From assembly GCA_964623205.1 (NCBI GenBank), contig CAZUQX010000007.1, forward strand, positions 12,665-76,664: a stretch of DNA of 64,000 nucleotides, given 5' to 3'. How positions within the stretch are numbered: the stretch's first letter is position 1; each line of letters opens with the position of its first letter. This stretch comes from an uncultured Candidatus Bathyarchaeia archaeon (GTDB taxonomy: Archaea > Thermoproteota > Bathyarchaeia > Bathyarchaeales > Bathyarchaeaceae). The translations under genes were made by a program, and so were the position numbers. This document shows, in pieces, positions 32,318-52,206 of this stretch. A model generated the notes under the pieces. It did not search any database. It was not told the origin of the DNA and saw only the letters and a program-made list of their open reading frames with translations.

Positions 32318-32414
32318 TTTGTTTGATTTTCTGTTTGGGATTTCATCTCTTTCACCAAAACGGTTCTTAGGTATCTCTAAGCTTATTTAAATTATTCGAA
32401 AGGGCTTTTTACAA

Positions 32415-33785: not shown

Positions 33786-33829
33786 TTATGTCGGATTCCA
33801 TCTAAACTATCCAATCATTGTGAAGTGAC

Positions 33830-34342: not shown

Positions 34343-34353
34343 TTTACTACCTC

Positions 34354-35431: not shown

Positions 35432-35437
35432 GTAATT

Positions 35438-35485
35438 CTCCTCCTGATGATAGTTTGTTTAATATTTTGTAGCGATATATTTAAA
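35438..35485 (-). promoter_or_regulatory. SD (GGAGGAG) and TATA-like box (TTTAAATATAT on minus strand) upstream of the 4-gene cassette
   Basis: 35475-35485 ATATATTTAAA lies about 45-55 nt upstream of the ATG at 35431, inside a 187-bp AT-rich gap after the RM gene. Confidence 0.35.
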
Positions 35486-35618
35486 TGTTTGGACATAAAT
35501 ATTAAATTACTCTTTGTTATCAACTGGATTTTTGGTAATTGGCTTTTGAGTTAAACTACCCAAAGAAAAAGAAACATATGGAGAGAGTCAAATGAAACTG
35601 CTAACTCTGAAATGAAAA

Positions 35619-38345
35619 TCATAGATTTCCTTCGATAATCCTTTGCTCTTTCTCGGTTATTCCATAAATCTTGTAAACCAGCTCGTCAATTTGGCAGTTA
35701 ATTTTGTCCATTTCCTTCTCAAGTCTAGCCCGTTCATCTGTCATTTTGTCACCAATTTGGTTTACACGAGCTTTGAGAGACAGCATCCTATTAACAAGTT
35801 GTATTAATGTTTGTTCAGATTCTTGAGCAACTTTTATCGGAAGTTCTTCCAGAAACTTAGTTCTATACCTCAAATAGCCTCCACCCATATGCATACCACC
35901 AAATAATACAAAATAAACAAAAGAAACCAGTTTTGAATTGAGCAAGCCGAGAATATATTCTAATGAAGTGTTTTCATTTTTCAATACCCCAAAATAAACT
36001 CCGCCTTGTGGTATTCTCTTCTCATAATCCATGGTAGCAGTTATTCTTAACGCATCTTCAGCGATGACAATTTTTCTTTTTAAACTGTTTACATACCTTT
36101 TTGATGTTGTGCTTATGACTTTTTTTAAGTTATTTTTTGTTATATAGCTGCCTTTGCTAATTGAACTGTATCTATCGAATTGATATTGTTTCAAAATTTC
36201 GAAATCATTAACAATGTTCTCTTCTAATGTTGTTGGTATTCTTAGCCCTTCAGAAATCTTAAGGTATTTTGATAATTTATCGCATTTTCTCAGTAATTTT
36301 ATAACAATGTCAAATTGTTCTTGGCTAATATTAATTGGGAAGATTTTTGAAGGCAAAACTTCCAAATCCCTTCGTGTTAGCCAATAATTTACAAAATTTT
36401 TATTTAAGAATTCATCACGTGTTGATACCGAACCGATATTAATCCTTTTTACATTTTTTCCCTTTGTAAGAAAAAGAAGAACTGGATAATTTGCAGCCTC
36501 TTTAAAAATATCTAAATGGCTAACACTTATAATTGTGCAATGGCTTGAATTCTTTACAATAATTTCCCTCAGTTTTTCAGCAGAACTGGCAGCACAAAAT
36601 TTGTTCGGCAAGATGAAGCCACATTTCCCACCTTCTTGCAACCACTTGAAAACGCTTTCAATAAACAAATAGTAGATGTCGTATTTTCCATAAGCTGAAC
36701 TAAAAACATCTTTCCAATATGTTTTTTCAACAATTTTTAGGTTATCTACTCTAACATACGGTGGATTTCCGATAACAACATCAAATCCTCCTTCTTTCAT
36801 TATGTCATCGAATTCATCTTCCCATCGAAAAGCTATGTTGCCTGCAATATTTTCATCGTCAATTATCGAGTTTCCCCGCCTGATGCTTTCTTCCAGTAAT
36901 GGTAATCTATGTCCCTTCTCAGCTATTTTGAGTAATAGATTGAGTTGTGCAATTTCAACTGCCTGTTTGTCTAAATCGACACCAAAAATATTGTCTTGGA
37001 GAATTTTTGCCTTTTTTGTAAATGGAATATCAATTTTTTGTTTGTCCAACTGAGTTTGACTATAATCCTTGATATTTTTCTTATAATATTCATCGAAAAT
37101 ATCGAATGCTTTAATCAGGAAGCTACCTGAGCCACAAGCAGGGTCTAATACTCTAATTTCTTCTACGTTGACTTTCTTTTTTTCCAGAATTTTGCCTAGA
37201 GTATTCCTAACGATGTAATCAACGATGTAGGTTGGAGTGTAGTAAATTCCCTGTTCTTTTCTATGTATCCCATTTTTGGTGACTCTTGCTCTTTTTGCAG
37301 TCTTTTTCAAAATGTGACTTAAGTATTGCTCATAGATGTTACCTAAAACGTCAGCATCGATTACTGAAAAATCGTAAGAAATAGAGAAATACTTCTCTTT
37401 TGTGAAATACAACCCCTTTATTATTTCAGATAATATTTCGTTATCAATTTCTAGTTGGTCACACAAATGTTTAGTAAATATCTTGCTGTCATAGTGTTCA
37501 TCAAAGTAACTGAAAATCTCTCTGAGACCTTTTACTAATTTTCCTCTGCCTCTGCTTCTCCATTCCCTTAATTTTGAAATCAAAAGTTTTTCTTCAAGCT
37601 CTTTGTCTTCACAATTTCGAATAAAAATAAGCCTGTCTAAGATTCTTTGAACTGACTCGTCCAACTCTTCTTTTGACAACTTTTCTTTTACGTTTAATTT
37701 CGTTATGCTCTTTGTGAGCATTCTTCTATATTTTGTAAAGTCCTCAAGAAGTTGCTCATCTATGGATGCTTTCTTAGTCTTTTTACTCCGTCTTTCTGCT
37801 GTTTCATCTAACAAACCTTTTTCGAAACTTTCTTTCGACAAAAGCCATAATTCATCAAATCTTTCAAGAAAATCGTCATACGTGATGGTTGTAAAATGGC
37901 TCTGTAAATAGTTAGCTGCCTTCCACTCAGCATTAAGAATTTTCACAGCTTCAAAATCTGTAAGAACTGCCCATGTGCAACCTTTATGCCATGCATAGCT
38001 GATTGCCTGCTCAAAATACTCTTCTTTATCCAAATCTGCTTTTAGTGACTTTGCTTCTAGGTAGAATTTTGGAATTCCATCAATTCTGAAACCATAATCC
38101 ACACGCTTTTTAGAAATTGTTTCTTCGGCAGTAACCTCTTTGGAATCTTGAAAATTCCAACCTAGTGCACGAAATAAAGGTTGAATGAAACCAATTTTAG
38201 TCATCTCTTCATTGTATTCTTTGACTCTATTTTCCTCTACAACTTTGTTGTATTTTTCTACAAGTTCTGCGATTTCGCTTCGAGCTTTTTCTTTGTCCAT
38301 TGTGGATACTAATTTTGTGGTTTCGATTATAACTTTTTGGGGCAT
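35619..38345 (-). CDS. Type IIG restriction endonuclease / N6-adenine DNA methyltransferase fusion (Eco57I-like)
   Basis: 908 aa. The N-terminal PD-ExK nuclease is of HsdR-N type (VDYGFRIDG..FYLEAKS). Methyltransferase motifs are VLDPACGSGSFL (motif I) and VVIGNPPYV (motif IV). The C-terminal specificity region ends in KIYGITEKEQRIIE. Confidence 0.85.
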   Translation of the reverse strand: MPQKVIIETTKLVSTMDKEKARSEIAELVEKYNKVVEENRVKEYNEEMTKIGFIQPLFRALGWNFQDSKEVTAEETISKKRVDYGFRIDGIPKFYLEAKSLKADLDKEEYFEQAISYAWHKGCTWAVLTDFEAVKILNAEWKAANYLQSHFTTITYDDFLERFDELWLLSKESFEKGLLDETAERRSKKTKKASIDEQLLEDFTKYRRMLTKSITKLNVKEKLSKEELDESVQRILDRLIFIRNCEDKELEEKLLISKLREWRSRGRGKLVKGLREIFSYFDEHYDSKIFTKHLCDQLEIDNEILSEIIKGLYFTKEKYFSISYDFSVIDADVLGNIYEQYLSHILKKTAKRARVTKNGIHRKEQGIYYTPTYIVDYIVRNTLGKILEKKKVNVEEIRVLDPACGSGSFLIKAFDIFDEYYKKNIKDYSQTQLDKQKIDIPFTKKAKILQDNIFGVDLDKQAVEIAQLNLLLKIAEKGHRLPLLEESIRRGNSIIDDENIAGNIAFRWEDEFDDIMKEGGFDVVIGNPPYVRVDNLKIVEKTYWKDVFSSAYGKYDIYYLFIESVFKWLQEGGKCGFILPNKFCAASSAEKLREIIVKNSSHCTIISVSHLDIFKEAANYPVLLFLTKGKNVKRINIGSVSTRDEFLNKNFVNYWLTRRDLEVLPSKIFPINISQEQFDIVIKLLRKCDKLSKYLKISEGLRIPTTLEENIVNDFEILKQYQFDRYSSISKGSYITKNNLKKVISTTSKRYVNSLKRKIVIAEDALRITATMDYEKRIPQGGVYFGVLKNENTSLEYILGLLNSKLVSFVYFVLFGGMHMGGGYLRYRTKFLEELPIKVAQESEQTLIQLVNRMLSLKARVNQIGDKMTDERARLEKEMDKINCQIDELVYKIYGITEKEQRIIEGNL

Positions 38346-38747
38346 CTTAGTTAGTCACTTATCTCCCCTACCTTTTTTCGTTGAATCTGATTCTGCATAG
38401 CTATTCCAAAAATCATCTTTTGTTGGAAAGCGGTTTCAAAAGTGTTATTAAGATGGTCAAGTGCGATTATTTTGGGGGTTGACTGAGGATACTGCCTTCT
38501 TAGGAAGTGCATATATCACACCAACTCAGTCATTTCCCCCATATGAATAAGCATTTTCTGTAAAAATTCTCTGATTCTTTCGGTGTCCAGAAAATCGTCC
38601 TTATGTAGGCTTATGTAAATATCCATTTTTTGTGACTTTTTAAGATTTTTAGCGGTTAATTTTGACGAAAAACAAAAAATATTGGTTTTTTAGGCTTTAT
38701 GGATAGTTTTATATGCTGTTTGACCCTAGTTTCTTGCGGTGTGATGT

Positions 38748-39003
38748 ATGCAAAAGAAAAATAAGGGCAAAATTAGCGGAGCGTTGAGGCTGGTTTTTTT
38801 GCTATCTAGCCTCAAAGTTACGTTTCAAAAATTTTGGAGGGTCAAAGCTGTCTAGTTTTTCACGGAAGCATTACAGAGCCATAGCTGAGATAATCCGAAA
38901 CGCTGAAACAAAATATCAGGTAGCTCAAGATTTAGCTGAGATGTTCGCAGCAGATAACTACCGATTCGACTACCAGAAATTCTTCAAGGCTTGCAATTTG
39001 TAG
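38748..39003 (+). pseudogene. Small ORF interrupted by a +1 frame change at a T7 run (frameshifted gene, slippery site or sequencing artefact)
   Basis: The ATG at 38748 opens MQKKNKGKISGALRLVF... The run at 38794-38800 is TTTTTTT. The +1 frame continues without any ATG/GTG/TTG start as ...SSFSRKHYRAIAEIIRNAETKYQVAQDLAEMFAADNYRFDYQKFFKACNL, ending at TAG 39001-39003. Confidence 0.3.
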
Positions 39004-39013
39004 AGGCTTAAAA

Positions 39014-39169
39014 ATGAAGATGCAGATTTTCAAATACAAAGTTAACCGTAGTATGAAAAAGTGTCTGCTAATCGGCATCGAAAAACCAAACAAAGTTGTT
39101 CTGGTTCACATAGGAAAAGTGTTCAAACCCTTAGACGCACAGCGAATAATAGAGCAATGCAAAAGGTGA
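39014..39169 (+). CDS. 51-aa hypothetical protein (below ORF-track cutoff)
   Basis: My own translation: MKMQIFKYKVNRSMKKCLLIGIEKPNKVVLVHIGKVFKPLDAQRIIEQCKR. It ends 4 nt before the TTG start of the ATPase ORF. Confidence 0.3.
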   Translation: MKMQIFKYKVNRSMKKCLLIGIEKPNKVVLVHIGKVFKPLDAQRIIEQCKR

Positions 39170-39173
39170 AAAG

Positions 39174-40448
39174 TTGGTTACGCCAACCAGAGAGCAAATT
39201 ATAGCTTATGCTTTAGAAAAGTGGCACATGGACGAAGCAAGAATGGGCAATCCAGCCTTCGACATTGAACCCGAACTGAGCGAACTGAAAGAAGAGGGTT
39301 ATTTGAGTCTCGCACAATCTGAACTGATGCGAAACCCAAATCTTGACGAATGGGACGCATATAATGAACGCCTAGATAATCTTCAGAAAACTTTGGAAAA
39401 AGAGCAACAAAACGATGTTAATACAAAAACGGTATTAGATGACATCCTCAATTTTGACGATTTGCTTTTGATTGCCAATAAGGGACAGGGAAAAACAAAC
39501 GCTTTGAAGGTCATAAGCTCAGAATTGCGAAAAATTCCAGATACTAGGGTAATAATCTTTGAGACCTTCCCCAAATTCTGCCTAGAATTCGAGGCTATTC
39601 CCTTCATTAAAATACATGATACCGATGTAACAGAAACAGGGCATACGGTAGACATAGAGAGCTACTTCTTGAGACATGAAAGAGACTACACAGTAAAGCG
39701 GGGACACGAAATAAGAGAAGCTCTAGGCAAGAATAGGGACTTAATCTTCACGCTAGAAATAACCGATATTGAAAGAATCGCATTTTTCGTTTACAGCATT
39801 GTTCAATATTTCTACCGTAGGGCATACCTTCGATTATACAAAGGCTATGAGAAAAGAGAAAAGGTAGTTTTCGTTATCGAAGAATCGCAAAATGTCTTTG
39901 ATTCTAGCACAATTTCAAAGAAGCTCTTCAACAGATTGCGGAAAATTTTCTCTGAAGCTAGAAACTTGGATTTGCATTTTATCATGTGCAGTCAACGACT
40001 CCAAGACCTCAACACCAAGATAAGGGGAAGAACTCGTTTAATGTTGGGAAATGTAAGCCTAGACGACTACGAATTGAAAGTTAGACGGTTGCTCAGAAAT
40101 AGCAAACACAAAACTGACATACTAAACTTTGAAAGGGGAACCTTTCTTTATTCAGCTACGGACAAAATAATCAAATTCCCATTATTTGAGACCACAGAGA
40201 AACCCTATGAACTAAACTACAAAGCCGAACCAAAACAAAAAATTGAACCACAAGAAGAGATTAGACACATGAAAAGGAAAAAGCCGAGCCGATGGCAAAA
40301 GCTGAAAGGCTTCCTAAAATTCTGGTCTTGGGGATACGATATTCCAGAGTATCCAAAAGGAAACAGAATCAAAGAAAACAGCTTTGAGGACGAGGACGAA
40401 GAAGACACAGCTTTTGGCGTTCCCATCGATATGTTAGAAGAAGACTAG
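39174..40448 (+). CDS. P-loop NTPase (FtsK/HerA- or plasmid/virus packaging-like ATPase), acidic C-terminal tail
   Basis: 424 aa. Walker A LLIANKGQGKTN, Walker B KVVFVIEESQNVF, then HFIMCSQRLQDL. The C-terminus is EDEDEEDTAFGVPIDMLEED. Confidence 0.55.
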   Translation: MVTPTREQIIAYALEKWHMDEARMGNPAFDIEPELSELKEEGYLSLAQSELMRNPNLDEWDAYNERLDNLQKTLEKEQQNDVNTKTVLDDILNFDDLLLIANKGQGKTNALKVISSELRKIPDTRVIIFETFPKFCLEFEAIPFIKIHDTDVTETGHTVDIESYFLRHERDYTVKRGHEIREALGKNRDLIFTLEITDIERIAFFVYSIVQYFYRRAYLRLYKGYEKREKVVFVIEESQNVFDSSTISKKLFNRLRKIFSEARNLDLHFIMCSQRLQDLNTKIRGRTRLMLGNVSLDDYELKVRRLLRNSKHKTDILNFERGTFLYSATDKIIKFPLFETTEKPYELNYKAEPKQKIEPQEEIRHMKRKKPSRWQKLKGFLKFWSWGYDIPEYPKGNRIKENSFEDEDEEDTAFGVPIDMLEED

Positions 40449-40498
40449 CTAGTTAATTCTTGGTATGTATTGGCGGTTCATAACTTTAAAGACACTGT

Positions 40499-40729
40499 AT
40501 GAGATTTGATAGTATTATGAAAGCCAAGAAGCAAACTTCAAATCCATTACTTACGCAAACAAATCAATGTTGTAAGGGTTTTCTTCAGAATCAGGTAAAC
40601 GTTCTACAAGCTATAAGAAACACACTAGAAGAATACACTAAGGAAGAAGTCATAAAACACATTGACCAAATACTGAATTATTACGAACAAAAAATTGAAG
40701 AACTCCCCAAACCAAAGTCAACGACCTGA
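40499..40729 (+). CDS. Hypothetical 76-aa protein
   Basis: ORF only; no recognisable motif. Confidence 0.3.
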   Translation: MRFDSIMKAKKQTSNPLLTQTNQCCKGFLQNQVNVLQAIRNTLEEYTKEEVIKHIDQILNYYEQKIEELPKPKSTT

Positions 40730-41311
40730 ACTTGCGTTTTGGATTAGAATAAAGAAAATAAGCGATACTCCGAGTTTAAATCAAAAGTTTTAGTGCCATC
40801 ACAAATAACTAAACAGTATCGCTTAATCATCTCACATATCCCCACCCTCTTTCATTTTTTTGATTTTTTGAAAGCCTATCTCTAAAAATTGGCAACATAC
40901 CCGAAAACCACAAGCTAACCATTAATCCAACATTAGAGGCATTTTAACTGAGAAATATTCTATAAAAATACTCTATAAGAAATCTAGAGGATTCGAACAA
41001 AATTCTCTTGAAAAATAGCTTGAGCCTTAATGCTTTCTCAAAGACTCTCCAAAAATCCTAGCTTTAATTATATCCTTATGTGAGCTTATGAGGGGGGGGC
41101 TTTTTGTTTGTGTCTCTCATTTTTTCTTAAAAGAAGCTGTATCCTGCCCTCTCTTTCATAAATTCTAGTTATGTTCCAAGTCAGTTAATCTTATTTTCCG
41201 TCAATCAAAACTAAGCTATGGCATAGAATAAACTACAACCAGATACACAGCCCTTTTTCTTTGTTCCATAACTAATTTTTTTATCATGTGCTGAAATTTT
41301 TATTGTTGAAT

Positions 41312-41341
41312 TAGTTGGATGTTGTTAGTAAGTTCCAACAA
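41312..41341 (+). repeat. Internal degenerate attP-like site (24/30 identical to the attP reconstructed from the island ends)
   Basis: TAGTTGGATG-TTGTTAGTAA-GTTCCAACAA compared with the predicted TAGTTGGATG-TTGTTGAAAA-CATCCAACTA. A core-like TTGTTGAA also sits at 41303-41310. Confidence 0.5.
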
Positions 41342-41557
41342 AAAGTTGGGTTTTTTATCCTGTGATGGGTTTAGTTAATCGTCATTTATTGTTAAAATTG
41401 ATAGATTTTTCGCATGTTTTGTAGCAATAATGCAACAATTTAATGAGAAAACACTCCCAGAACGTCCTGACCCCTTCTACTAACTGCATAAACAATACAC
41501 AAAACATAGTCTATCGGTTTCGGTTGGAGTAAAAAATATGTTCAAATTGGCTAGGGC

Positions 41558-41586
41558 ATATACATTGTCACGGTATATACATTGTC
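41558..41586 (+). promoter_or_regulatory. Tandem ATATACATTGTC repeats (17-bp period) about 100 bp upstream of the TIR-like gene
   Basis: 41558-41569 and 41575-41586 are identical 12-mers. They are followed by TTTGTAG repeats. Confidence 0.4.
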
Positions 41587-41683
41587 GTTTTTTTGTAGCG
41601 TTTCTTTGTAGTGTGTAGTTTATTGGTTTTCGTTAGGACAATAATCTTATGAATTGCATTGTCCCAATTGTAACTGATTCAGA

Positions 41684-42583
41684 ATGCCTTTCTATCACGT
41701 TAGGATAACCAAGAAAAGCAGAACAACAAACGACAGGCTTGCATTAGACCTCTCCAAAGATGAATTGATGGCGAGAATCGTTAATCCTTTCTTAGAAGGA
41801 AAAACATTCATGTGTGGTGGGGAGCCGATTGACCCTTTTGATGTTGCTGTAATTCACATCAATGAAACAGAAAGAAAATCTGCTGACCTAATTCCTGAAA
41901 TCAAAGCTGAGAGAGCAAGGTCTAGAGTTGCTGTGGCAATTTCTAATGAGTGGTATGTTACTAAGAAGGGGAAAGATGTGACTAGAGAGTTGATTACTCA
42001 TCCTCCAAAAAAGCAAGAAACTGTGAAAGTTACTGTTGAACTGAGTAAAAACGTGTTTATTGTTCATGGCAGAGACCATGAGCCAATGAAAGAGCTAAAA
42101 ACAATGCTCTTGGAATTTGGTCTCAACCCTATTGTTCTTCATGAACAACCAAGCGGAAGCAGAACAATTGTAGAAAAATTAGAGAAATATTCTGATGTTG
42201 GTTACGCTTTTGTGATTTTAACTCCAGAAGATGTTGGATGTTTGAAAAATAAAATTAGGGAAAAGATAAACTCAGTTCTTAAACTTACTGAAGACAAAAA
42301 ACCAAGGTCTTTGATAGCTGACATTCATTCTATAGGAGTAATACGTGCTTATATGCATGAAATGAATGCATATCTTAGTCCTAGAGCCCGTCAAAATGTT
42401 GTTTTGGAGTTTGGCTATTTCATGGGCTTGTTGAGTCGTGACCGAGTTTGTTGTTTGCTTAAAGGAGACGTAGAAAAGCCCTCAGACATGCACGGAATAG
42501 TATACGTTCCTTTCAAGGATTCTGTTGAAGAAAGACGCAGTATGATAATTAAGGAACTTAAAGAAGCTGGTTTTGAACTTTAA
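41684..42583 (+). CDS. TIR-like domain protein (Cap12/PycTIR-type predicted nucleotide-binding/NADase effector) with unknown about 120-aa N-terminal domain
   Basis: The C-terminal half reads NVFIVHGRDHEPMKELKTMLLEFGLNPIVLHEQ...YAFVILTPEDVG...ARQNVVLEFGYFMGLLSRDRVCCLLKGDVEKPSDMHGIVYV. This matches my memory of the TIR-like family pattern (fIvHG.d...a.vllTpDD...aRqNV.fElGyf...PSD..G..y). Confidence 0.65.
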   Translation: MPFYHVRITKKSRTTNDRLALDLSKDELMARIVNPFLEGKTFMCGGEPIDPFDVAVIHINETERKSADLIPEIKAERARSRVAVAISNEWYVTKKGKDVTRELITHPPKKQETVKVTVELSKNVFIVHGRDHEPMKELKTMLLEFGLNPIVLHEQPSGSRTIVEKLEKYSDVGYAFVILTPEDVGCLKNKIREKINSVLKLTEDKKPRSLIADIHSIGVIRAYMHEMNAYLSPRARQNVVLEFGYFMGLLSRDRVCCLLKGDVEKPSDMHGIVYVPFKDSVEERRSMIIKELKEAGFEL

Positions 42584-42589
42584 AAGTGA

Positions 42590-42871
42590 TTAGGCTTTTC
42601 CCCTTGAAATTAATCTTCTTGCTATGCCTATCGTGTTTAAGGCTACATTTTCCGTGCACAAAAATTCGTCCATGAAATCGTCTTTTACTTCTGCTATCAG
42701 TTCTTGAACCTGTTCTATTAGTATCCACTCTTCTGGGTCTGAGATGTTTTGCTTCTCGGAAATGATTCCATATTTGTTTTCGTATTCATCCATGAGTTTC
42801 AGGTAATTTTTTATTGTGCCCCTATGGTTCGCAAGTATCCATTCGATTTTTTTTCGTCTAGTCTGTGGCAT
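42590..42871 (-). CDS. Hypothetical 93-aa protein (last gene of a 3-gene minus-strand unit)
   Basis: ORF only. It starts 12 nt downstream of the 42884 gene. Confidence 0.4.
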   Translation of the reverse strand: MPQTRRKKIEWILANHRGTIKNYLKLMDEYENKYGIISEKQNISDPEEWILIEQVQELIAEVKDDFMDEFLCTENVALNTIGIARRLISRGKA

Positions 42872-42883
42872 ATCATTTTTTCC

Positions 42884-43234
42884 TCATGGTATTTTTGGCG
42901 ATAGTTGTTTTCTTAATTTGCATAACTTTTCAATTGTTTCTCGGTCATGTGTTCGGATTAGGCTCTTGTCTATGAGGGCAACTAAGCCATGTTTCAAAAT
43001 CTCTTCTAAGCTGTATGCGTCATAGAACTTTTTGATTTCATTTGCGTAAATGAGTGTTTCAGTTGAAATTCTGATTGATGTGCCCGATTTTTTGGCTAAC
43101 TTTAGCGGTTCTGTGGCGAACTCGACCTTTTCTGGTTTAACTAAATTCAAAGCTTCTAGCGGAATTTCCAGTTTGAGAGGAACTGACTTTTTGCCTTTCA
43201 GTCGCTTATCGTCAGGTTTTATCAGTTCTGTCAT
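42884..43234 (-). CDS. Hypothetical 116-aa protein
   Basis: Its start overlaps the stop of the upstream gene by 4 nt (43231-43234), which suggests translational coupling. Confidence 0.4.
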   Translation of the reverse strand: MTELIKPDDKRLKGKKSVPLKLEIPLEALNLVKPEKVEFATEPLKLAKKSGTSIRISTETLIYANEIKKFYDAYSLEEILKHGLVALIDKSLIRTHDRETIEKLCKLRKQLSPKIP

Positions 43235-44022
43235 GGTCTCAATCCTCTCTGAATGATTGTTGTTCCGCTTTTTGCTTCAATCAATGCATTGTAGGCTTTG
43301 ACTTCCTCAACATATTTTTTGAATTCTTTAAACAGTTTTTCTGCCTTTTGTATCGTTTTTTCGTTGTATGCTATTGTCTCCTTTTCTTCTTTGGTTATTC
43401 GCTTATTGTATTGCATAATTTTCTTATTTTGTTCCTCAACTTTTTTGAAAAATTGTTTCGCTTCTTTGATTGTTTTAAGAGTTTCAGATTTTTTGTTTTC
43501 AGTTTCTTCAACAAATTTGAGAACTTTTTTTAAAAGCTCTTTGACCTGTTTTTTTCGACTCTTCTCAAGAGCCAAAATCTTATCCTGTTTCTCTCTGACC
43601 CGTTGCATCCAATCATGAAAATTTTGGATTAGGTCTTTTCTTGTTTCAGCGTCCTTTCTGGTTTGTTCCAGCAAACAGTTCTGAAACACATCTACAAAGG
43701 TTTTGAAATTTTGTAATTGGTCTAAGTATTTGGCACGGATTTCCTCATTCAATTCTCTGGTTTCTTGTTCGTCTTCTGCGTGTTGTTGCCTTAAAGCATC
43801 AATTTCGTCCAAAATTATTGACTCAATATCTTCTAACTGTTCTTTCATGGTTTCCTGAAAACTTTTTTTCCGTAGGCTTCTCTGTCCAGCTAACCAACTT
43901 GAAGCCCTCCCCAAATCAACCTCTTCCGATTCGACTGATTCGTTTTCTTCTTCAATTTCTTCCGAATCGATTTCTTCGCTTTTCAATTTTTTTAGGTAAG
44001 CCTCCATCTTTTTGTTCGTCAA
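43231..44022 (-). CDS. 263-aa highly charged coiled-coil protein
   Basis: An acidic N-terminus (EEIDSEEIEEENESVESEE) is followed by E/K/Q-rich heptad-like sequence throughout. Confidence 0.5.
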   Translation of the reverse strand: MTNKKMEAYLKKLKSEEIDSEEIEEENESVESEEVDLGRASSWLAGQRSLRKKSFQETMKEQLEDIESIILDEIDALRQQHAEDEQETRELNEEIRAKYLDQLQNFKTFVDVFQNCLLEQTRKDAETRKDLIQNFHDWMQRVREKQDKILALEKSRKKQVKELLKKVLKFVEETENKKSETLKTIKEAKQFFKKVEEQNKKIMQYNKRITKEEKETIAYNEKTIQKAEKLFKEFKKYVEEVKAYNALIEAKSGTTIIQRGLRP

Positions 44023-44053
44023 ATTGAATTCCTCATTCTTTGCATGCAGTTTG

Positions 44054-44082
44054 TATACATATATTATACATAATTATACATA
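44054..44082. promoter_or_regulatory. Three direct TATACATA boxes at 11/10-bp spacing in a divergent promoter region
   Basis: The boxes are at 44054-44061, 44065-44072 and 44075-44082. CACGTGAT at 44227-44234 and the 10-bp palindrome ATCACGTGAT at 44268-44277 lie downstream. Confidence 0.4.
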
Positions 44083-44229
44083 TAAGTTTTATTGTTAATA
44101 CAAGAAGAATATATGTGTGAATCAACATAATATATTGTGTTTCATAGACACCAGAATTTGAAACGTTTCTAGGTAAAAAGGGAACATCCAAATTCCTTCT
44201 TTTCTTTTAACAAAAATTCTTATCAGCAC

Positions 44230-45108
44230 GTGATTAAAACATTTTTTGTCAAATATTTTTTTATTTCATCACGTGATAACAAAAAAAGCATAAACGATAC
44301 CTTTATAACGAACTTAACGAATACATTTCATGATAAAATGGATTGGCGGAACATGACCGATATTGAAGAAAAAGCTGTTGGAATTGCTGAAATTATTTGG
44401 CATGACCGATATTTTCGAAAAGGATTCTTTAGACAATTTTACGATTGCCTTCATGAAGCCCTTAAGATTTGTGACCAAAAATATCCTCAAAGTCAGTTGG
44501 ATTCTTTCAGGATTGCTGTTCCGAAATGGCGATTCAAACGGGAAATCCAATTAGCTAATGATTGTTATCGACTTTTCAAAATCCATAATTCCCTAGAAGA
44601 TAGAAAGAAAATGAGACATACGAGATATTTTTGGTTCATGGACGGAATTTCTAAGAAGCGAACTGAGCTTGATTGTTGGGATACGGTTAGAGTTTTTGAC
44701 GGTCAAATTTTGCCGTGTGGTTCCTGTTGCATAATTGAATCTCCCCATTTTATGCAACTGAAAGCAAAGAAAACGGATACATTAACTCAATTAATTGTTC
44801 ATGAAATCGTAGATGCCTTAGAATCAAAGGATTGCTGTAGGTTACAAGAAGAAACCAAGAAACGAAACTCGTGTGCTAATGGCTATAAATCCCATGAAAA
44901 ACACCACGACCAAATCATACTCGCAGAGCAATGGCTCTATAACCGATTCCATAAAAAGAGACCCGATTACTACACACCATTCGAAGACGAACAGTTACGA
45001 ATCCTATATCCGAAAGCCTCTAGAGAGACACTTGAAAAAGAATTGAAATTCCGTTCTTGGAAGTCTATCCGCTCAAGAGCTTACGACTTGGGAATAAAAA
45101 GAATTTGA
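44230..45108 (+). CDS. Hypothetical protein with C-terminal Myb/SANT-like helix region; true start probably the ATG at 44338
   Basis: The ORF-track GTG start runs through the CACGTGAT palindromes. The first Met (MDWRNMTDIEEK) is codon 37. The C-terminus is LRILYPKASRETLEKELKFRSWKSIRSRAYDLGI. Confidence 0.45.
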   Translation: MIKTFFVKYFFISSRDNKKSINDTFITNLTNTFHDKMDWRNMTDIEEKAVGIAEIIWHDRYFRKGFFRQFYDCLHEALKICDQKYPQSQLDSFRIAVPKWRFKREIQLANDCYRLFKIHNSLEDRKKMRHTRYFWFMDGISKKRTELDCWDTVRVFDGQILPCGSCCIIESPHFMQLKAKKTDTLTQLIVHEIVDALESKDCCRLQEETKKRNSCANGYKSHEKHHDQIILAEQWLYNRFHKKRPDYYTPFEDEQLRILYPKASRETLEKELKFRSWKSIRSRAYDLGIKRI

Positions 45109-45193
45109 GAATCTTCAATCTAGCCTTTATATATCAAAACGCATGGGGAAACGCATGATTCCAAAATTAGCCAAAAAGGAGGTGTGACAAATA

Positions 45194-46288
45194 TTGACAC
45201 AATCCAGTAAGTCAGTTAATCAATCCAAAAATACGCATGATAATAACCATAAATCACAATATACTATAAAAAAGTCCAAACATCAAACTAGACCTACCCT
45301 TAGACCTCTCCAAACTTATAAAAACATGATAGAAAAACATTGTAAACCCTTTAATTTGGCTTGGTTGGATTCTGGAATTGATTATCTAATAACCTGTATC
45401 GACAACTACGATTTTACGCATGATTTTTCTTTGACCCAGAAGGAAATCCCAGAACTTAAAGATGTGCTACGGCTCATGATTGTTAGAGGGATGTATGTCA
45501 GGTCTCTTGACGTGGTAAATAAACTTAAAATCTCTAGAAGAACCGCACAAAAATATCTTCTAAGACTTTGTAAATTAAGATGGTGTATGCGTGGTCGTTG
45601 GGTAACGTATAACGACATAAATCCATTCCTGCAATTTCTGATTTACCTTTCTCCAAAAAAGATGGGGCAGCTCATACATTTCTTCGCTCCTAGGCAGGTC
45701 GATTTGTTGAACCTCTTATCATACTCACTCTTGGAAGCTATAGATGAAAAAGTTAATGATGTCAAATTCATTTGGAGTCAAAAAGAACCAGATTTTGGCA
45801 ATGACTATTTTCCGTCCCTTCAGCATATTGGAAAATTCTATCCATATTTCAACGGAACGGTTCAAATTAAAGCCGAAACAGAAAGCCGAGATTATTATTC
45901 GACCCTTCCGTATAACATCCATTGGACGGGAAGGAATTCTCACATTACCCTTCCAATTCCCTTCAAATTCTATGGAGTTCAAGATGTTGGATACTCATCC
46001 AAAATTAACAAGCTGAAAGTCCATTTCGACAATTCGATAACAGTTGGGATTCCTTTAGGGTCTGCCAGTTATTCAAGTCGAAAATTACTAAATGAATGGG
46101 GACTAAAGCATTGGAGCGATATGGCAAATAGCTTTATGAACAAATACTGGAAAAACGAATATGTAGAGACCTTTAATTTCCAAACCCATGAAGAGATAAT
46201 AAAGAATAGATTACTCTACAAAGCAATCCCGATTAAACAGGTATCACAAAAGACATTTCTCTTAAAGCAATGTCTAGCTGAGATATAA
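45194..46288 (+). CDS. Hypothetical 364-aa protein with putative wHTH (possible replication/partition-type function)
   Basis: LKISRRTAQKYLLRLCKLRW is an HTH-like stretch. There are no enzymatic motifs. Confidence 0.4.
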   Translation: MTQSSKSVNQSKNTHDNNHKSQYTIKKSKHQTRPTLRPLQTYKNMIEKHCKPFNLAWLDSGIDYLITCIDNYDFTHDFSLTQKEIPELKDVLRLMIVRGMYVRSLDVVNKLKISRRTAQKYLLRLCKLRWCMRGRWVTYNDINPFLQFLIYLSPKKMGQLIHFFAPRQVDLLNLLSYSLLEAIDEKVNDVKFIWSQKEPDFGNDYFPSLQHIGKFYPYFNGTVQIKAETESRDYYSTLPYNIHWTGRNSHITLPIPFKFYGVQDVGYSSKINKLKVHFDNSITVGIPLGSASYSSRKLLNEWGLKHWSDMANSFMNKYWKNEYVETFNFQTHEEIIKNRLLYKAIPIKQVSQKTFLLKQCLAEI

Positions 46289-46389
46289 GTTCATTTTCTA
46301 TTCAAAAACCACTCTTTCTCAATTTCATTATGCGATATTGTAAACAAAATGTAAAAACTTATAAGTAAGTTTATACATATATTTATTAG

Positions 46390-46638
46390 ATGATAAAAAT
46401 GCAGCATAAATATGCATTCATAAGAATAAGAAAAGAAACAAAGGAAAAGCTTGATACATGGGCAAAAATTTGTGACAAGAAATTGATTAACATGCTAGAT
46501 GAAATCATAGACGCTTATCGGGACACTATTCTAATCAGCAACATCAATCGTTTACTAAACAGTCCAAACGCAGACGATGTTTTCTATGTCGCTAACGAAG
46601 TCGCTAAATCAATCATTAAGAGGGATAACAATGACTGA
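46390..46638 (+). CDS. Small possible ribbon-helix-helix protein
   Basis: AFIRIRKETKEKLDTWAKICDKKLINMLDEIIDAY has a beta-strand plus two-helix pattern. A TATACATA box at 46372-46379 suggests a leaderless start at ATG 46399. Confidence 0.4.
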   Translation: MIKMQHKYAFIRIRKETKEKLDTWAKICDKKLINMLDEIIDAYRDTILISNINRLLNSPNADDVFYVANEVAKSIIKRDNND

Positions 46639-47341
46639 ACCAATTTGTGAAAATTGTGGAAAGCCATTAAACGAATGTCAATGCGAAGAACCAAAGATTT
46701 CAGTTTCAAAAGCTAGAGAGCCTGACAGGATTGTCAGAATTGAATCTGTGCAAGTCCCTAGTAAAGAAGAGTTTGAGAAGGTCAAAAAACAAAAAGAGGA
46801 TTATGAACGAATTATCGCACTTCAGGCTGAAAAAAGCTTCAGAGACGAGCTTTCAGAATTTTTGTCTCAAGTAGATGACGATGAAAAACGGGAAGCAATT
46901 GAGAAAATGATTGACAACGACCCAGAAAGGTTAGAAAATGCTAAAATGATGACTTCAATTCTGGAACAGGCAATTCATGCTGGTGGTGGTCGAGTTACTG
47001 GAAGAAGAATGCCTAGCGGAAAAGCCTCATTGCCTCAAAATAATTCAGGTTTTTCAGACAGTTACAAAGAATACGTTGATACGTTGTATGAAACTCTCAA
47101 AGACCCAAGTAAATCTGACCTAGAAAAAGAATCAGCAAATCAGATGCTTGACCAATTGTTCGGTGAAATGGTGAAAGGACTTCGTGTAGCTAAAGGAAAA
47201 TATGGTCATGCCGTGCCATCATACCAAGTTACGGAGTGTCCTAACTGTCGCTTGTTGCTTACTGGAGAACGGGGCGAAGAAATCGATTATTGTCCTCGCT
47301 GTGGATGGCAGAAATACGTGAAGTCTGCGAGACGGGCTTAG
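46631..47341 (+). CDS. Zinc-ribbon protein (Cys pairs at both termini)
   Basis: The ATG at 46631 overlaps the upstream stop (ATGACTGA). N-terminal CENCGKPLNECQC and C-terminal CPNCRLLL...CPRCGW. The ORF track lists 46577 as an upstream alternative start. Confidence 0.5.
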   Translation: MTEPICENCGKPLNECQCEEPKISVSKAREPDRIVRIESVQVPSKEEFEKVKKQKEDYERIIALQAEKSFRDELSEFLSQVDDDEKREAIEKMIDNDPERLENAKMMTSILEQAIHAGGGRVTGRRMPSGKASLPQNNSGFSDSYKEYVDTLYETLKDPSKSDLEKESANQMLDQLFGEMVKGLRVAKGKYGHAVPSYQVTECPNCRLLLTGERGEEIDYCPRCGWQKYVKSARRA

Positions 47342-47380
47342 GCTGTTTTTTATGCCTACCGTCTTAGCCATCATGGATTA

Positions 47381-47827
47381 ATGGATGGAAGAAAAATGCT
47401 AAGAAAAAAGAAAGTTAGTCTCGTCTTGTCTGTTGCCCTTTCTGACAGGGAAACATTCAAAGTTCTACCTGACAAGAAGCAACAAAAGAACATCTACGAC
47501 AGAGTTCGCAATAGGCTAGTTCGTCAGGGAGTAGAGGACGATTTACTGCAAACTAGATTAATTGCTGAAATCCGTTCTGAACTCTTTAAACTTCAACCCA
47601 AATTCAACCCAAAATCTTCTGAATCCGAAATTCAAAGCAATAAAGAATCATTTTTTGACAGAAATTTTAGAATTAGAGGTTTTGACGTTTGGAGCGAACA
47701 CGAAGAGTCTATAGACCCAATTCAGCAACTTCAGGACAATTACAATCGAACCGTAGAAGAGGGATTCAGAGATGTTTTCTGTCCTATCTGTCATTGCGAA
47801 AAATCTTGCTGTCGATGTCACGAATAA
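47381..47827 (+). CDS. Hypothetical 148-aa protein with Cys-rich C-terminus
   Basis: The C-terminus is CPICHCEKSCCRCHE. Confidence 0.4.
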   Translation: MDGRKMLRKKKVSLVLSVALSDRETFKVLPDKKQQKNIYDRVRNRLVRQGVEDDLLQTRLIAEIRSELFKLQPKFNPKSSESEIQSNKESFFDRNFRIRGFDVWSEHEESIDPIQQLQDNYNRTVEEGFRDVFCPICHCEKSCCRCHE

Positions 47828-47843
47828 AAAAAGTGGAAGAAGA

Positions 47844-49124
47844 TTATTCTTCCGCTTGCTTTTTCTCTAGTTTCTTAATTACGCCTTTGTAGTCAGCCAA
47901 CAGGTCTAAAGCTGGTTGAACTTGTGTCTGCAAATCAAAAATTGTCTGTTTTGCTTCGGACAGTTCTTTTTGCTGATTATTGGTGGTTTCTTGAAGTAAA
48001 TCCACTCTTGTCTTAAATGCAGAGTTTTCCCTCTCAATCTGCTGAATAGCCTCCTTCATTTTCTCTATTTGTTCCTGTTGATTCTGCCTAGTTTTTCCTG
48101 ATATATCTCCATTGAGAGACAAATTCTTGTAAGCCAAACGAAAGATTTTCTCAGCTTGGTCTTCCAGTTCTTCGTATGTCATGTCAGAAACGCTTACAGA
48201 TTTTGCACAGATTATTTTCGCCATGTCTTTATCTATTCGTCTTAATCTGCTGAAAGTGAATTTTCGGATACAATGAAATCTAACTCTCTTTTTCCCGATG
48301 TTGATGTTTGCTTTAGTTACTAATCTTCGAAGTTTTTTGTTTAATCCTTCATTTGAGATGGGTTTGTCTGGTTTGCTGTTGCACCAGATGTATTTTGGGA
48401 GTTTTCCTTTTTTCTTTTCCAGCACCTTCAAGTATGCATTAACACTTTCTATGGCTTCAGGAGTCAAAAATGAGATTGGCTGAATTCCTGTTTTTTGTCG
48501 TGGCTGACCTATCCATTTGGCAAAGTCTAAGCCTCTCTGTTTAGCATCATCAATAATCTCTCTAAGTTTCTGTGCCTCTATCCTAAGAAAATCCTTGCTT
48601 CCCTGTCCATAGCTAACCGCCAATGAAATCAATGCTTTTTCTGCGACATCTCCAAAATGGAACATCTTGCGTAAATCGTCTTGACTGAATCGATATTCAT
48701 CTTGTGGCATCTGAGTAGGTGCAAAAGAATCCATTACGCCTTCTATTGCTTTACAATTTTGATGATAAAACGCTAATACTGCACTCCCCATTTCATTGCA
48801 ATAGTTTGTTGAATATGGTTTGTTGCTTTTTGGATTAATCTGCTTTCTGAACCAGTTATAGAACTCGATTATTCGGTTAGAAATGTCTCTTTCCCATTCA
48901 TCCAAGTTGTTGAGCATTTTTTCCTGTTTATATTCTTCAATCAATTGTTCTGGGGTCTTGTCAGTCCAGAAACAGTATTTCTTAAATCTGCTCGAATGGC
49001 TCCGCTTCGTAGATTCTTTGCATCTAGGAAAATACTTGAGGTAGTCAGCGTTTTTCTTGCTAATCATTTCTGGTTTTTGGTTTTCTTCATATTCTGTTTT
49101 AGGGTTTATGGATTCAAAATCCAA
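47844..49124 (-). CDS. Tyrosine recombinase / integrase with about 90-aa C-terminal coiled-coil extension
   Basis: 426 aa. VRFHCIRKFTFS (H-x-x-R) is followed by AKSVSVSDMTYEE (candidate catalytic Tyr). The N-terminal region resembles a SAM-like core-binding domain. TTG start per the ORF track. The gene abuts the attR-like site. Confidence 0.7.
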   Translation of the reverse strand: MDFESINPKTEYEENQKPEMISKKNADYLKYFPRCKESTKRSHSSRFKKYCFWTDKTPEQLIEEYKQEKMLNNLDEWERDISNRIIEFYNWFRKQINPKSNKPYSTNYCNEMGSAVLAFYHQNCKAIEGVMDSFAPTQMPQDEYRFSQDDLRKMFHFGDVAEKALISLAVSYGQGSKDFLRIEAQKLREIIDDAKQRGLDFAKWIGQPRQKTGIQPISFLTPEAIESVNAYLKVLEKKKGKLPKYIWCNSKPDKPISNEGLNKKLRRLVTKANINIGKKRVRFHCIRKFTFSRLRRIDKDMAKIICAKSVSVSDMTYEELEDQAEKIFRLAYKNLSLNGDISGKTRQNQQEQIEKMKEAIQQIERENSAFKTRVDLLQETTNNQQKELSEAKQTIFDLQTQVQPALDLLADYKGVIKKLEKKQAEE

Positions 49125-49128
49125 CTTG

Positions 49129-49148
49129 TAGTTGGATGTTGTTGAAAA
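49129..49148 (+). repeat. attR-like site: inner arm TAGTTGGATG + core TTGTTGAAAA
   Basis: Read directly. It lies 5 bp outside the integrase ORF start. The adjacent 49121-49135 CCAACTtgtAGTTGG is itself a 6-bp-arm palindrome. Confidence 0.65.
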
Positions 49149-49237: not shown

Positions 49238-49759
49238 GTGGAATGGGAAGGATTGTCCATGGGCAAGTTTACAGTAATTTCTGCTAAAATACCTGATGAG
49301 GTGTACAAGGAACTCGCTCTTCGTATCCCTGAAGGGGAAAGAAGCACATTCATTCGGGAAGCCATACTGGAGAAACTGGAAAAGACTCCGCGACCAGACA
49401 AGATTCTAGGGTTGGAACAGAAAGTCACCAAGCTGGAAAACGAAGTTAACAAAATAAAAGATTGGCTAGCCAAGCTTGAAGTTCTTACCCACGAAGAGGG
49501 AAAAGTAAATCCTCATATCTTCTGCATCGACGAGTTTGACAACAAAATCGTGGATTACCTTCTCGATAATAGAGGAGCCACAACCACCGAGCTTGCGGAG
49601 TTTCTGGGAACGAATCGCTGGTTTGTTCTTAACCGCCTCAGAAAAATTGAGAAATCATCCAAGAAGCAACTTGGAAAATCCATCATATTCTATTACTCTG
49701 GAGAAAGAACGGGAAAAAGAAAAGCTTGGTGGATAAGTGAAGACCTAATTGAAACATGA
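49238..49759 (+). CDS. Ribbon-helix-helix + winged-helix transcriptional regulator
   Basis: KFTVISAKIPDEVYKELALRIPEGERSTFIREAILEKL is a CopG/RHH pattern. C-terminal IVDYLLDNRGATTTELAEFLGTNRWFVLNRLRKI is wHTH-like. The likely start is the ATG at 49259. Confidence 0.6.
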   Translation: MEWEGLSMGKFTVISAKIPDEVYKELALRIPEGERSTFIREAILEKLEKTPRPDKILGLEQKVTKLENEVNKIKDWLAKLEVLTHEEGKVNPHIFCIDEFDNKIVDYLLDNRGATTTELAEFLGTNRWFVLNRLRKIEKSSKKQLGKSIIFYYSGERTGKRKAWWISEDLIET

Positions 49760-49801
49760 CCCGCCTTAATCGACAAAGATTTTAAGTATGTTCGCTGACA
49801 T

Positions 49802-50056
49802 GTGGCTGTGGGGTTGAAGGATATGTCAGAACTTGTAAAAGCCTATATCCTTGCTAACGTAAAACGTGGAGCCGAACACAAGGTTGCCCTGAAGATTAAG
49901 AAGATGAAAGAAATCACGGAAGTCCTTGTTACCTATGGACTCTGGGACATAATCGCCCGCATCGAAGCTGAAAGTTTAGGGCATCTCGACAAGATCATCA
50001 CTGATATACGGCAGATTGAAGAGATCGAGCAGACCACCACGCTCATAGGCTCCTAA
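49802..50056 (+). CDS. Stand-alone Lrp/AsnC-type ligand-binding (RAM) domain protein
   Basis: 84 aa. AYILANVKRG...EVLVTYGLWDIIARIEAESLGHLDKIITDIRQIEEIEQTTTLI has the RAM-domain beta-alpha-beta-beta-alpha-beta pattern. Confidence 0.6.
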   Translation: MAVGLKDMSELVKAYILANVKRGAEHKVALKIKKMKEITEVLVTYGLWDIIARIEAESLGHLDKIITDIRQIEEIEQTTTLIGS

Positions 50057-50138
50057 AAAGTCTCGAATACACGTCCTTGCAGAGACGTAAAGGCAACAAA
50101 GCTTAATTTACACAAAGACTCTGGAAGAGTGAAAAGTA

Positions 50139-50243
50139 GGGCCCGTAGCCCAGACAGGATTAAGGCGTCGAACCATCCCACAGGGAAGGTGCGCAAGCCT
50201 CCGGAGCCGGAAACCCGGGGTTCAAATCCCCGCGGGCCCGCCA
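50139..50243 (+). tRNA. tRNA-Arg (anticodon CCG at 50201-50203) with 26-nt intron at 50171-50196 (position 29/30) and encoded CCA
   Basis: Folded by hand. Acceptor GGGCCCG/CGGGCCC, D stem GCC/GGC, T arm CGGGG-TTCAAAT-CCCCG, discriminator G, then CCA. After intron removal the anticodon arm is TCGGC-CTCCGGA-GCCGG. BHB motif around the intron (4-bp helix 50165-50168/50191-50194, 3-nt bulges 50169-50171 and 50195-50197). A TATA-like TTAATTTA box sits at 50103-50110. Confidence 0.85.
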
Positions 50244-50259
50244 AAAGGAAGAAAACAGA

Positions 50260-52206
50260 ATGGCTACAGTTAACCCCTTCAAGGAATTCCATGATGACTG
50301 CGAGACCGCTTTAAAGGATGCCCTCAACAAGCTACATCCCAATTTTATCTTGCCATTTATGCTGCTTGAAATCCCGCCTAACCTCGAATTCGGTGAATTG
50401 GCAACCTCGGTATGCTTCGAGATTGCCAAGCAAACTGGAAAGAAAGCTAGGAATATAGCGGAGGAAACCGTGCAAACAATAGATGTTAGCGGTTTTCCGT
50501 TGATTCAATCAGTTGAGGCTGCTGGGGCAGGATACATCAATTTTCACGTAAACTCTGAAAAGTTCTTCCGTTTAACCCTTGAATCCGCCAGAGCCCTCGA
50601 TCGGGAATATGGATACGTTAAAACTTCTGAGCCGAAAACGATTATGCTCGAACATACCAGCGTCAATCCCATCCATCCAATCCACATAGGACAGGCAAGG
50701 AACCCGATGTTGGGCGATGCCCTAGCCCGCATCCTAACGGAACACGGACACACGGTCTCAAGGCATTATTATGTGGACGATGTTGGCCGCCAGAGCGCTG
50801 TCATAGCCTACGGATACACTAAACTTGGGAGGCCGAAGCCCCAAGGAAAGCCTGACAGTTTCATAGGCGCAATCTATGCGGTTACAAGTTGCATAATGGA
50901 GATTCAGCGTCTCAAGAAAGCGGTTGAAACAGCAAAGAAGCTTGAGACCCAAGAAATTTCGAAGCTACAGAGGGAACTGGATGATTGGGCCTCAGTTGCG
51001 GCAGACCTAGAAAAGAGATTCCCCGAAATCTTCACTCGCCTCCTAGACGAAATCAGCAGGGACAGCGACCCTGAAGAACAGGTGAGCAACCTAATACGTG
51101 GATACGAGGCGGGCAGAGAAGATGCGAAGCAGCTACTCAGGGAGGTCTGTCAACTCTGTCTCAGAGGATTCAGAGAAACCCTCGGCAGAGTTGGAGTCAT
51201 CATCGATTCTTGGGACTGGGAGAGCGACCTAATCTGGAACGACGACGTCAACCGTGTCCTCGACGAACTAAAGACAACCCCCTATGTTTTCCAGTTGGGA
51301 GGAGTTTTAGAATTTGATGCAGAAAAAGTTGCTCACGACCTTGATCTCAAAAAGGCGTTGGGTCTGAGCGATGACCATGAGCTATCTTCCCTGACTCTCG
51401 TGAGGGCTGACGGAACCACCCTCTACACAACGAGAGATATTGCCTATCATCTGTGGAAGTTTCAGAGAGCTGAATGCGTCATCAACGTGATCGGCATGGA
51501 ACAGAGTCTTCCCCAGCTGCAGTTGAAACTTGCTTTGAGTGCTCTTGGTCACGTGGATTACATAACAAAACTAACTCACTTTGCCTACAATCTCGTGAGC
51601 CTTCCGGGGTACCGGATGTCAAGCCGCAGAGGTCGCTACGTCACCCTCGACGAGGTTATGGATGGAGCAGCCGAGCGGGCTTACGAAGAAGTTACGAAAC
51701 GTTCTCCTCACCTGTCTGATGAAGAGAAGAGGCAGATTTCAGAATTCGTGGGAAAAGGAGCAGTCAAATATGCTCTCGTTGAAGTGGATCCAACAAAACC
51801 TGTTGTCTTTACTTGGGACAGGGTGCTAGACTTTGAGAAGAACAGTGCCCCCTACATTCAGTATTCGCACGCTAGAGCCCAAAGCATCCTGAAGAAAGCA
51901 TCTAGAGAACCTGAAAACGCTGACTACTCAATTCTAGCAGACCCAATGGAACGGGATATAGTGCTGACTTTAGCTCGTTTTCCTGAGGTCTTCGTGGATG
52001 CTGCAGAGAATCTCCGACCAAACGCCATAGCGGACTATGCCAACAGGTTAGCTGACAAGTTCAACAGGTTCTACACTAAACTGCCAGTTATAAAAGCCGA
52101 GTCACGTGAACTAAGCGACGCTAGACTCGCCCTTGTGGACGCTACGAGAATAGTTCTTCGAAATGCCCTGAAACTCTTGGGAATAGAGGCGCCAGAGAGA
52201 ATGTAA
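50260..52206 (+). CDS. argS: Arginyl-tRNA synthetase
   Basis: 648 aa. Class I HIGH-like motif SVNPIHPIHIGQARN, MSSRRG (KMSKS-like), and a DALR anticodon-binding C-terminus (YIQYSHARAQSIL...). Confidence 0.9.
   Translation: MATVNPFKEFHDDCETALKDALNKLHPNFILPFMLLEIPPNLEFGELATSVCFEIAKQTGKKARNIAEETVQTIDVSGFPLIQSVEAAGAGYINFHVNSEKFFRLTLESARALDREYGYVKTSEPKTIMLEHTSVNPIHPIHIGQARNPMLGDALARILTEHGHTVSRHYYVDDVGRQSAVIAYGYTKLGRPKPQGKPDSFIGAIYAVTSCIMEIQRLKKAVETAKKLETQEISKLQRELDDWASVAADLEKRFPEIFTRLLDEISRDSDPEEQVSNLIRGYEAGREDAKQLLREVCQLCLRGFRETLGRVGVIIDSWDWESDLIWNDDVNRVLDELKTTPYVFQLGGVLEFDAEKVAHDLDLKKALGLSDDHELSSLTLVRADGTTLYTTRDIAYHLWKFQRAECVINVIGMEQSLPQLQLKLALSALGHVDYITKLTHFAYNLVSLPGYRMSSRRGRYVTLDEVMDGAAERAYEEVTKRSPHLSDEEKRQISEFVGKGAVKYALVEVDPTKPVVFTWDRVLDFEKNSAPYIQYSHARAQSILKKASREPENADYSILADPMERDIVLTLARFPEVFVDAAENLRPNAIADYANRLADKFNRFYTKLPVIKAESRELSDARLALVDATRIVLRNALKLLGIEAPERM

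Follow-up and report, generated by a model that had tools for sequence, protein, structure and literature searches.

The locus at positions 50139-50243 of the archaeal DNA analysed here (a stretch of 64,000 nt, hereafter the window) raises the question of whether a sequence in which standard tools find no gene encodes a tRNA interrupted by an intron outside the canonical site, as had been proposed in a first-pass annotation. ARAGORN with default settings returned 0 tRNA genes for the whole 64-kb window, and Rfam at its gathering threshold returned 0 RNA families, bearing out the warning that tRNA finders can miss this gene. In E-value mode on positions 50050-50330 (281 nt), Rfam produced a partial tRNA match of 14.7 bits, under the 29-bit cut-off, indicating that the covariance model does not recognise the unspliced gene because of the intron; the intron-bearing gene of the closest relative was likewise missed by Rfam. 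The same E-value search placed a spurious mascRNA match on the T arm, and low-stringency ARAGORN was uninformative, giving more than 120 junk calls. A crude scan for T-arm and acceptor sequences detected no other hidden tRNA in the window, only the gene at 50139-50243.

We interpret 50139-50243 (plus strand, 105 nt with the encoded CCA counted in) as the tRNA-Arg(CCG) gene of a member of the Bathyarchaeia near Ca. Bathyarchaeum, containing a 26-nt protein-spliced intron at position 29/30, a reading to which the sequence comparisons lead us to assign a probability of about 90%. The DNA flanking the gene is 85-89% identical to CP070820.1, from Ca. Bathyarchaeum sp. bin115 (L013), the closest relative, and 80-86% identical to two other Bathyarchaeia genomes, in agreement with the earlier guess, made from the intron type, of a TACK/Thermoproteota-type lineage.

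The gene reads GGGCCCG-TA-GCCC-AGACAGGATTA-AGGC-G-TCG[AACCATCCCACAGGGAAGGTGCGCAA]GC-CTCCGGA-GCCGG-AAACC-CGGGG-TTCAAAT-CCCCG-CGGGCCC-G-CCA, with the putative 26-nt intron (50171-50196) in the inner brackets. Deletion of these 26 nt leaves a 79-nt product, which ARAGORN calls as tRNA-Arg(CCG) with the anticodon arm TCGGC-CTCCGGA-GCCGG. As had been claimed, the cloverleaf requires removal of 50171-50196: the spliced sequence forms 20 of the 21 cloverleaf pairs, and the sole unpaired position, C13-A22, is also found in the intronless Bathyarchaeia orthologues that share this D arm. The product has stems of 7, 4, 5 and 5 bp, a 7-nt anticodon loop with U33 and a purine at position 37, and a GTTCAAATC T loop. 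The 5' exon (50139-50170, plus strand, tRNA positions 1-29) comprises the acceptor strand, the D arm, G26 and U27-C28-G29, and differs from the intronless Bathyarchaeia orthologues (for example, L038, L067 and L069) only in a few D-loop bases and at position 27. The 3' exon (50197-50243, plus strand, positions 30-76) supplies the anticodon CCG (50201-50203), the T arm, the other acceptor strand, the discriminator G and the encoded CCA (50241-50243). The intron thus lies between G29 (50170) and G30 (50197), in the 5' strand of the anticodon stem and outside the canonical 37/38 site.

Around these junctions, the precursor can adopt a bulge-helix-bulge motif, and all the helix, bulge and inner-helix coordinates given for it in the first-pass annotation are correct. 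Its central helix H has 4 bp, one of them a G-U pair, formed by GCGT at 50165-50168 (G24, C25, G26 and U27) with GCGC at 50191-50194. On opposite strands, helix H is flanked by two 3-nt bulges, CGA (50169-50171) and AAG (50195-50197), with predicted cleavages at 50170/50171 and 50196/50197. On the intron side, helix h' (ACC at 50172-50174 with GGT at 50188-50190) extends through TCCC/GGGA into a 7-bp hairpin (50172-50190) with one A-A mismatch and the loop ACA, whose pairs have folding probabilities of 0.83-1.0. Given junctions set independently by the cloverleaf, an in-register motif with 4/4 pairs in H and 3/3 in h' arose by chance in 0.03% of shuffled introns and in 0.1% of random 26-mers from the window. 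Cleavage after the second base of each bulge would join UCG to GC and restore the 5-bp anticodon stem, and the intronless orthologues read CCG/GC at this point, so that the splice sites had been placed correctly. Conversely, the proposed 1-nt ambiguity of the exon boundary is wrong, because either one-base shift breaks an anticodon-stem pair: a shift of -1 yields TCAGC by computation, and a shift of +1 yields TCGAC as read from the sequence.

The description of this motif as a textbook bulge-helix-bulge holds for its core, which recurs in 41 genes, and fails for the strict form. The strict hBHBh' motif is defined by at least two Watson-Crick pairs in each of h and h' (PMC7714728). In the window gene, h' has 3 bp (extending to 7), but the exon-side helix h consists of the single Watson-Crick pair G23-C31, A22 and C32 being unable to pair, and the motif is therefore of the relaxed HBh' form. 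Two more divergent intron-bearing genes, from Ca. Hecatella orcuttiae (L005) and a Bathyarchaeia metagenome-assembled genome (L034), have a D arm that ends in GG, which gives a 3-bp exon-side helix and satisfies the strict definition there.

To place the gene among its orthologues, we scanned one genome per GTDB species with the pattern CTCCGGA-N11-GGGGTTCAAATCCCC-N-CGGGCCC, recovering 76 loci, mostly from Bathyarchaeia, plus Desulfurococcales, Methanomethylicota, Culexmicrobium and others. An insert of 20-37 nt occupies the identical site in 40 other tRNA-Arg(CCG) genes, again mostly from Bathyarchaeia, and these follow the pattern GGCG(C/T)CG / A....(GCGC/GCGT/GTGC/ACGC)AA / GC-CTCCGGA. Both 3-nt bulges and h' are kept in all 41 genes, the window's included. 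Helix H is fully paired (4/4) in 40 of the 41 genes, or 39 of 40 excluding the window, the exception being L005, with one A-A mismatch. Of the 41 genes, 40 have CG^A as the 5' bulge (the caret marks the predicted cut) and the remaining one has TG^A; as the 3' bulge, 37 have AA^G, three AG^G and one CA^G. The interior of the hairpin varies freely in sequence and length.

Another 32 genes lack the insert and read CCG/GC across the site, 12 of them labelled Bathyarchaeia or Bathyarchaeota; as tRNAs, the intronless orthologues score 60-62 bits with Rfam RF00005. Two of the intronless genes (L069 and L076) lie behind the same two upstream genes as in the window, and a third (L070) behind one of the two; all three read GGCGCCG/GC. 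We conclude from the shared upstream genes of L069 and L076 that genes with and without the intron occupy orthologous loci, and from the CCG/GC reading at this conserved locus that the junction is fixed. Together, the 40 intron-bearing genes, the intronless orthologues and the ARAGORN call on the spliced sequence confirm the gene, the anticodon CCG, the intron coordinates and the 29/30 position that had been assigned to it. The gene is genuine and conserved, and ordinary for an archaeon of the TACK lineage.

Pairing changes among the orthologues support the motif. In a junction-anchored alignment of 34 distinct sequences, 95.2% of the cells of the motif were paired, as compared with 79.2% in shuffles, and the covariation score was 0.509 as compared with 0.213; neither observed value was reached in any of 500 shuffles. 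When the partners were slid by 1-3 columns, pairing fell to 8.5-71.4% and the score did not exceed 0.18. Helix H was paired in 99.3% of the cells, and compensatory, two-sided changes occurred in six of the eight pairs, including all four of the outermost h' pairs; in helix H, the pair at position 26 changed from G-C to A-U in three sequences, and that at position 27 from C-G to U-A in one.

Thermodynamic folding ranked the motif lower. The HBh' fold, which needs part of the D stem to be opened for helix H to form, is less stable than the minimum-free-energy fold by 1.9 kcal/mol, and the ensemble probability of helix H is about 4%. In the minimum-free-energy fold, 22-25 pair with 30-33, and 28-29 with the intron; this arrangement fits all the orthologues, with 96.2% of cells paired. 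However, its own pairs are invariant or show one-sided changes only in the orthologue alignment, with no two-sided changes, and it presents the splice sites asymmetrically. We thus rejected it as the splicing structure.

Different gene models can be drawn over the same bases. The intron search of ARAGORN (option -i), which had been suggested as a check, reported 50139-50243 as a tRNA-Ser(GGA), in a fold that has an 8-nt intron and a variable region of unusual length. This fold is poor, having a mismatch in the anticodon stem and a drawn "variable arm" that is an unpaired stretch of 20 or more nt containing the true anticodon arm. Since, in addition, CTCCGGA occupies a normal anticodon loop in the 40 orthologues and in the intronless genes, and the gene adjoins the arginyl-tRNA synthetase gene, we give a serine tRNA a chance close to nil. 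A covariance model, R1, built from 28 intronless orthologues addressed the suggestion that such models might assign another fold or anticodon: it retained the anticodon CCG and placed the insert elsewhere, aligning the gene over its full length (70.2 bits, E = 5.5e-12) with 50161-50188 (28 nt) removed from the D loop and D stem. The intron 3' end, GTGCGCAA, is then read as exon, and GTGC-G-CAAGC supplies, in turn, the 3' strand of the D stem, position 26 and the 5' strand of the anticodon stem. We consider this placement to have a very slight chance of being right, because it forms 18 of the 21 cloverleaf pairs, as compared with 20 of 21 for an intron at 29/30, and offers no bulge-helix-bulge motif at its junctions. 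It also discards TTAAGGCG(C/T)CG, which is near-invariant in most intron-bearing genes and matches the exons of intronless Bathyarchaeia, and keeps as exon a segment that varies among GCGT, GTGC, ACGC and GCGA. The R1 alignment is most likely an artefact of the model, because insert states in the D loop are cheap and the 3' end of the intron complements a near-palindromic exon stretch.

Rejection of the unspliced gene by the standard finders would also be expected if the tRNA were disrupted and non-functional, with the insert as junk that is never removed. It is very unlikely, however, that such a relic would show near-perfectly conserved exons, a motif maintained by compensatory changes across 41 genes around a hairpin with a free interior, and a conserved promoter-like motif upstream; moreover, in the complete chromosome of L013 (CP070820.1), the intron-bearing gene is the sole match to the search pattern. 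A last possibility is that the tRNA was altered by the integration of a mobile element, the gene being a hybrid att site, as might be thought from the integrase-bearing, low-GC island just upstream and from the occurrence, in other archaea, of tRNA-Arg(CCG) copies limited to the 3' half. Yet a 10-nt repeat, TTGTTGAAAA, marks the end of the island, roughly 1 kb upstream of the tRNA gene, and a search for repeats of any part of the tRNA in the window found none. The closest relatives, L013 and L063, lack the island, its flanking sequences being contiguous there, and they have essentially the same intron-bearing gene (that of L013 differs at 2 bases), which refutes a hybrid origin and leaves it with next to no credence. 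An intron at 29/30 in an intact tRNA-Arg(CCG) gene is thus the reading that we carry forward.

The island itself spans approximately 16.8 kb (32308-49138), has a GC content of 33-39% and is bounded by direct copies of TTGTTGAAAA at 32298-32307 and 49139-49148. It contains genes for a Shedu SduA_C protein (32415-33785), a CBASS-like SLATT_4 and SMODS pair (33830-35286), an Eco57I/MmeI-type restriction-modification fusion (35619-38345) and a CAP12/Pycsar TIR-domain protein (41684-42583), as well as an open reading frame on the minus strand (47844-49124) with a weak match to tyrosine integrases. The element resembles an integrated defence island, and its insertion site is intergenic rather than within the tRNA. 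Between the island and the tRNA gene, 49238-50056 holds a gene for a 173-aa protein, with a weak match to the winged-helix family HTH_24, and an 84-aa open reading frame for an Lrp/AsnC ligand-binding domain; a homologue of the 173-aa gene adjoins the tRNA in most of the Bathyarchaeia loci fetched.

Upstream of the tRNA, a BRE-like element, CAACAAAG (50094-50101, plus strand), is followed after one base by a TATA-like box, TTAATTTA (50103-50110, plus strand), that ends 28 nt before the 5' end of the tRNA. The sequence (C)AACA...TTAAT(T/C)TA occurs at the same upstream distance in close and distant orthologous loci and, from this position and conservation, 50094-50110 is likely an archaeal promoter. 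Downstream, the arginyl-tRNA synthetase gene argS (50260-52206, plus strand; Pfam Arg_tRNA_synt_N, tRNA-synt_1d and DALR_1) starts 16 nt past the CCA, and the spacer (50244-50262 region) contains an SD-like GGAAG and no T-run; an exact-sequence look-up of the ArgRS protein returned no record. In six relatives (L013, L063, L054, L053, L026 and L060), as in the window, argS starts 13-20 nt after tRNA-Arg(CCG), behind a spacer with an SD-like GGAAG, GGAG or GGTGA and without a terminator-like T-run, and in other Bathyarchaeia (L075, L010 and L043) a distance of 2-3 kb separates the two genes. Because the tight spacing recurs in the six relatives, tRNA-Arg(CCG) is probably co-transcribed with its own synthetase.

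These features suggest a route to the mature tRNA. A transcript that probably also includes argS would start from the likely BRE/TATA promoter, some 30 nt upstream of the tRNA gene. In the precursor, exon bases 24-27 would leave the D stem, position 26 and the anticodon stem to pair with the intron GCGC, and the resulting 4-bp helix would be flanked by the bulges CG^A and AA^G, with the intron hairpin closing the 5' bulge. The splicing endonuclease EndA would then cut the relaxed HBh' motif after the second base of each bulge, at 50170/50171 and 50196/50197, and the RtcB ligase would join the exons into a 76-nt tRNA plus the encoded CCA, with the anticodon stem UCGGC/GCCGG and a predicted spliced junction reading ...GGCG(U/C)CG/GCCUCCGG....

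Relaxed hBH and HBh' motifs are documented EndA substrates and, at non-canonical positions, are cut only by the (alpha-beta)2 or loop-bearing types of the enzyme (PMC4090602, PMC5829648). A tblastn search with one M. jannaschii EndA query found no EndA gene in the 64-kb window and identified homologues in two Bathyarchaeia loci, from genomes other than the window's: a 178-aa protein (L046, 7071-7607) and a 183-aa protein (L040, 2371-2922), both with the Pfam tRNA_int_endo domain and its N-terminal domain. Both retain the Tyr and Lys of the catalytic triad and have Thr or Ala in place of its His (KEHS becoming KETA or KEAR), a replacement hinting that the two proteins serve as structural subunits within a heteromeric splicing endonuclease. 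Each gene adjoins one for an MTR-1-P isomerase/eIF2B-like protein, and no catalytic EndA partner was seen.

Position 29/30 is among the listed non-canonical intron sites of archaea (PMC4090602), and the nearest parallels are the introns of Crenarchaeota/Thermoproteales (Marck & Grosjean 2003; Sugahara et al. 2008, reviewed in PMC4090602 and PMC4033280), which are likewise short, located outside 37/38, processed through a relaxed (HBh') motif and found in the TACK lineage. Introns of this type are expected to need a broad-specificity EndA. In contrast to the recent spread of introns through many genes that those accounts describe for Thermoproteales, the host here belongs to the Bathyarchaeia, and one intron resides at one site of one isoacceptor in many species. 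The split tRNA-Ala(CGC/UGC) genes of Caldivirga maquilingensis (Fujishima et al. 2009, cited in PMC4090602) have the same 29/30 break and the same class of processing motif but consist of two separately transcribed halves joined in trans, whereas the window gene is one continuous unit holding a 26-nt intron in cis. With the canonical 37/38 introns and their strict hBHBh' motif (the substrates, for example, of the M. jannaschii and A. fulgidus EndA), the window gene shares the core of a 3-nt bulge, a 4-bp helix and a 3-nt bulge, cleaved after the second bulge base; it differs in its 29/30 location, in a helix H drawn from the D stem and positions 26 and 27 rather than from the anticodon loop, and in an h of a single pair.

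No publication retrieved in our full-text literature search specifically described tRNA introns or EndA types for Bathyarchaeota/Bathyarchaeia. What is modestly new, on the genes compared, is a single intron at one site of one isoacceptor kept across dozens of Bathyarchaeia species, which extends the non-canonical introns of crenarchaeal type to this group and predicts a broad-specificity splicing endonuclease in it; our understanding of tRNA splicing is unchanged. The 40 other intron-bearing genomes may score as lacking tRNA-Arg(CCG) in other pipelines, if these are equally blind, and genes missed in this way would distort the tRNA counts of metagenome-assembled genomes. Comparison of alleles with and without the intron at this one conserved locus could also serve to date intron gain or loss.

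A further thought is that the 29/30 intron might be old and selectively kept in a large Bathyarchaeia clade for a role beyond its own removal. In the Bathyarchaeum sub-clade, where tRNA-Arg(CCG) and argS appear to be a single transcription unit, tRNA maturation might be coupled to argS expression through splicing or through a different folding of the precursor, or the intron might protect an integration hot spot, an idea that derives from the att-like 3' halves, beginning at position 32, in other archaea. We regard such a role as speculative and unlikely.

The partial tRNA-Arg(CCG) copies in question, in L021 (276), L024 (62) and L041 (5452), start exactly at position 32 (CTCCGGA...) and are preceded by unrelated sequence. 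They look like att remnants of elements integrated into tRNA-Arg(CCG), their hosts being Culexmicrobium and a Desulfurococcales metagenome-assembled genome, and the copy in L041 lies 1.8 kb from a full gene.
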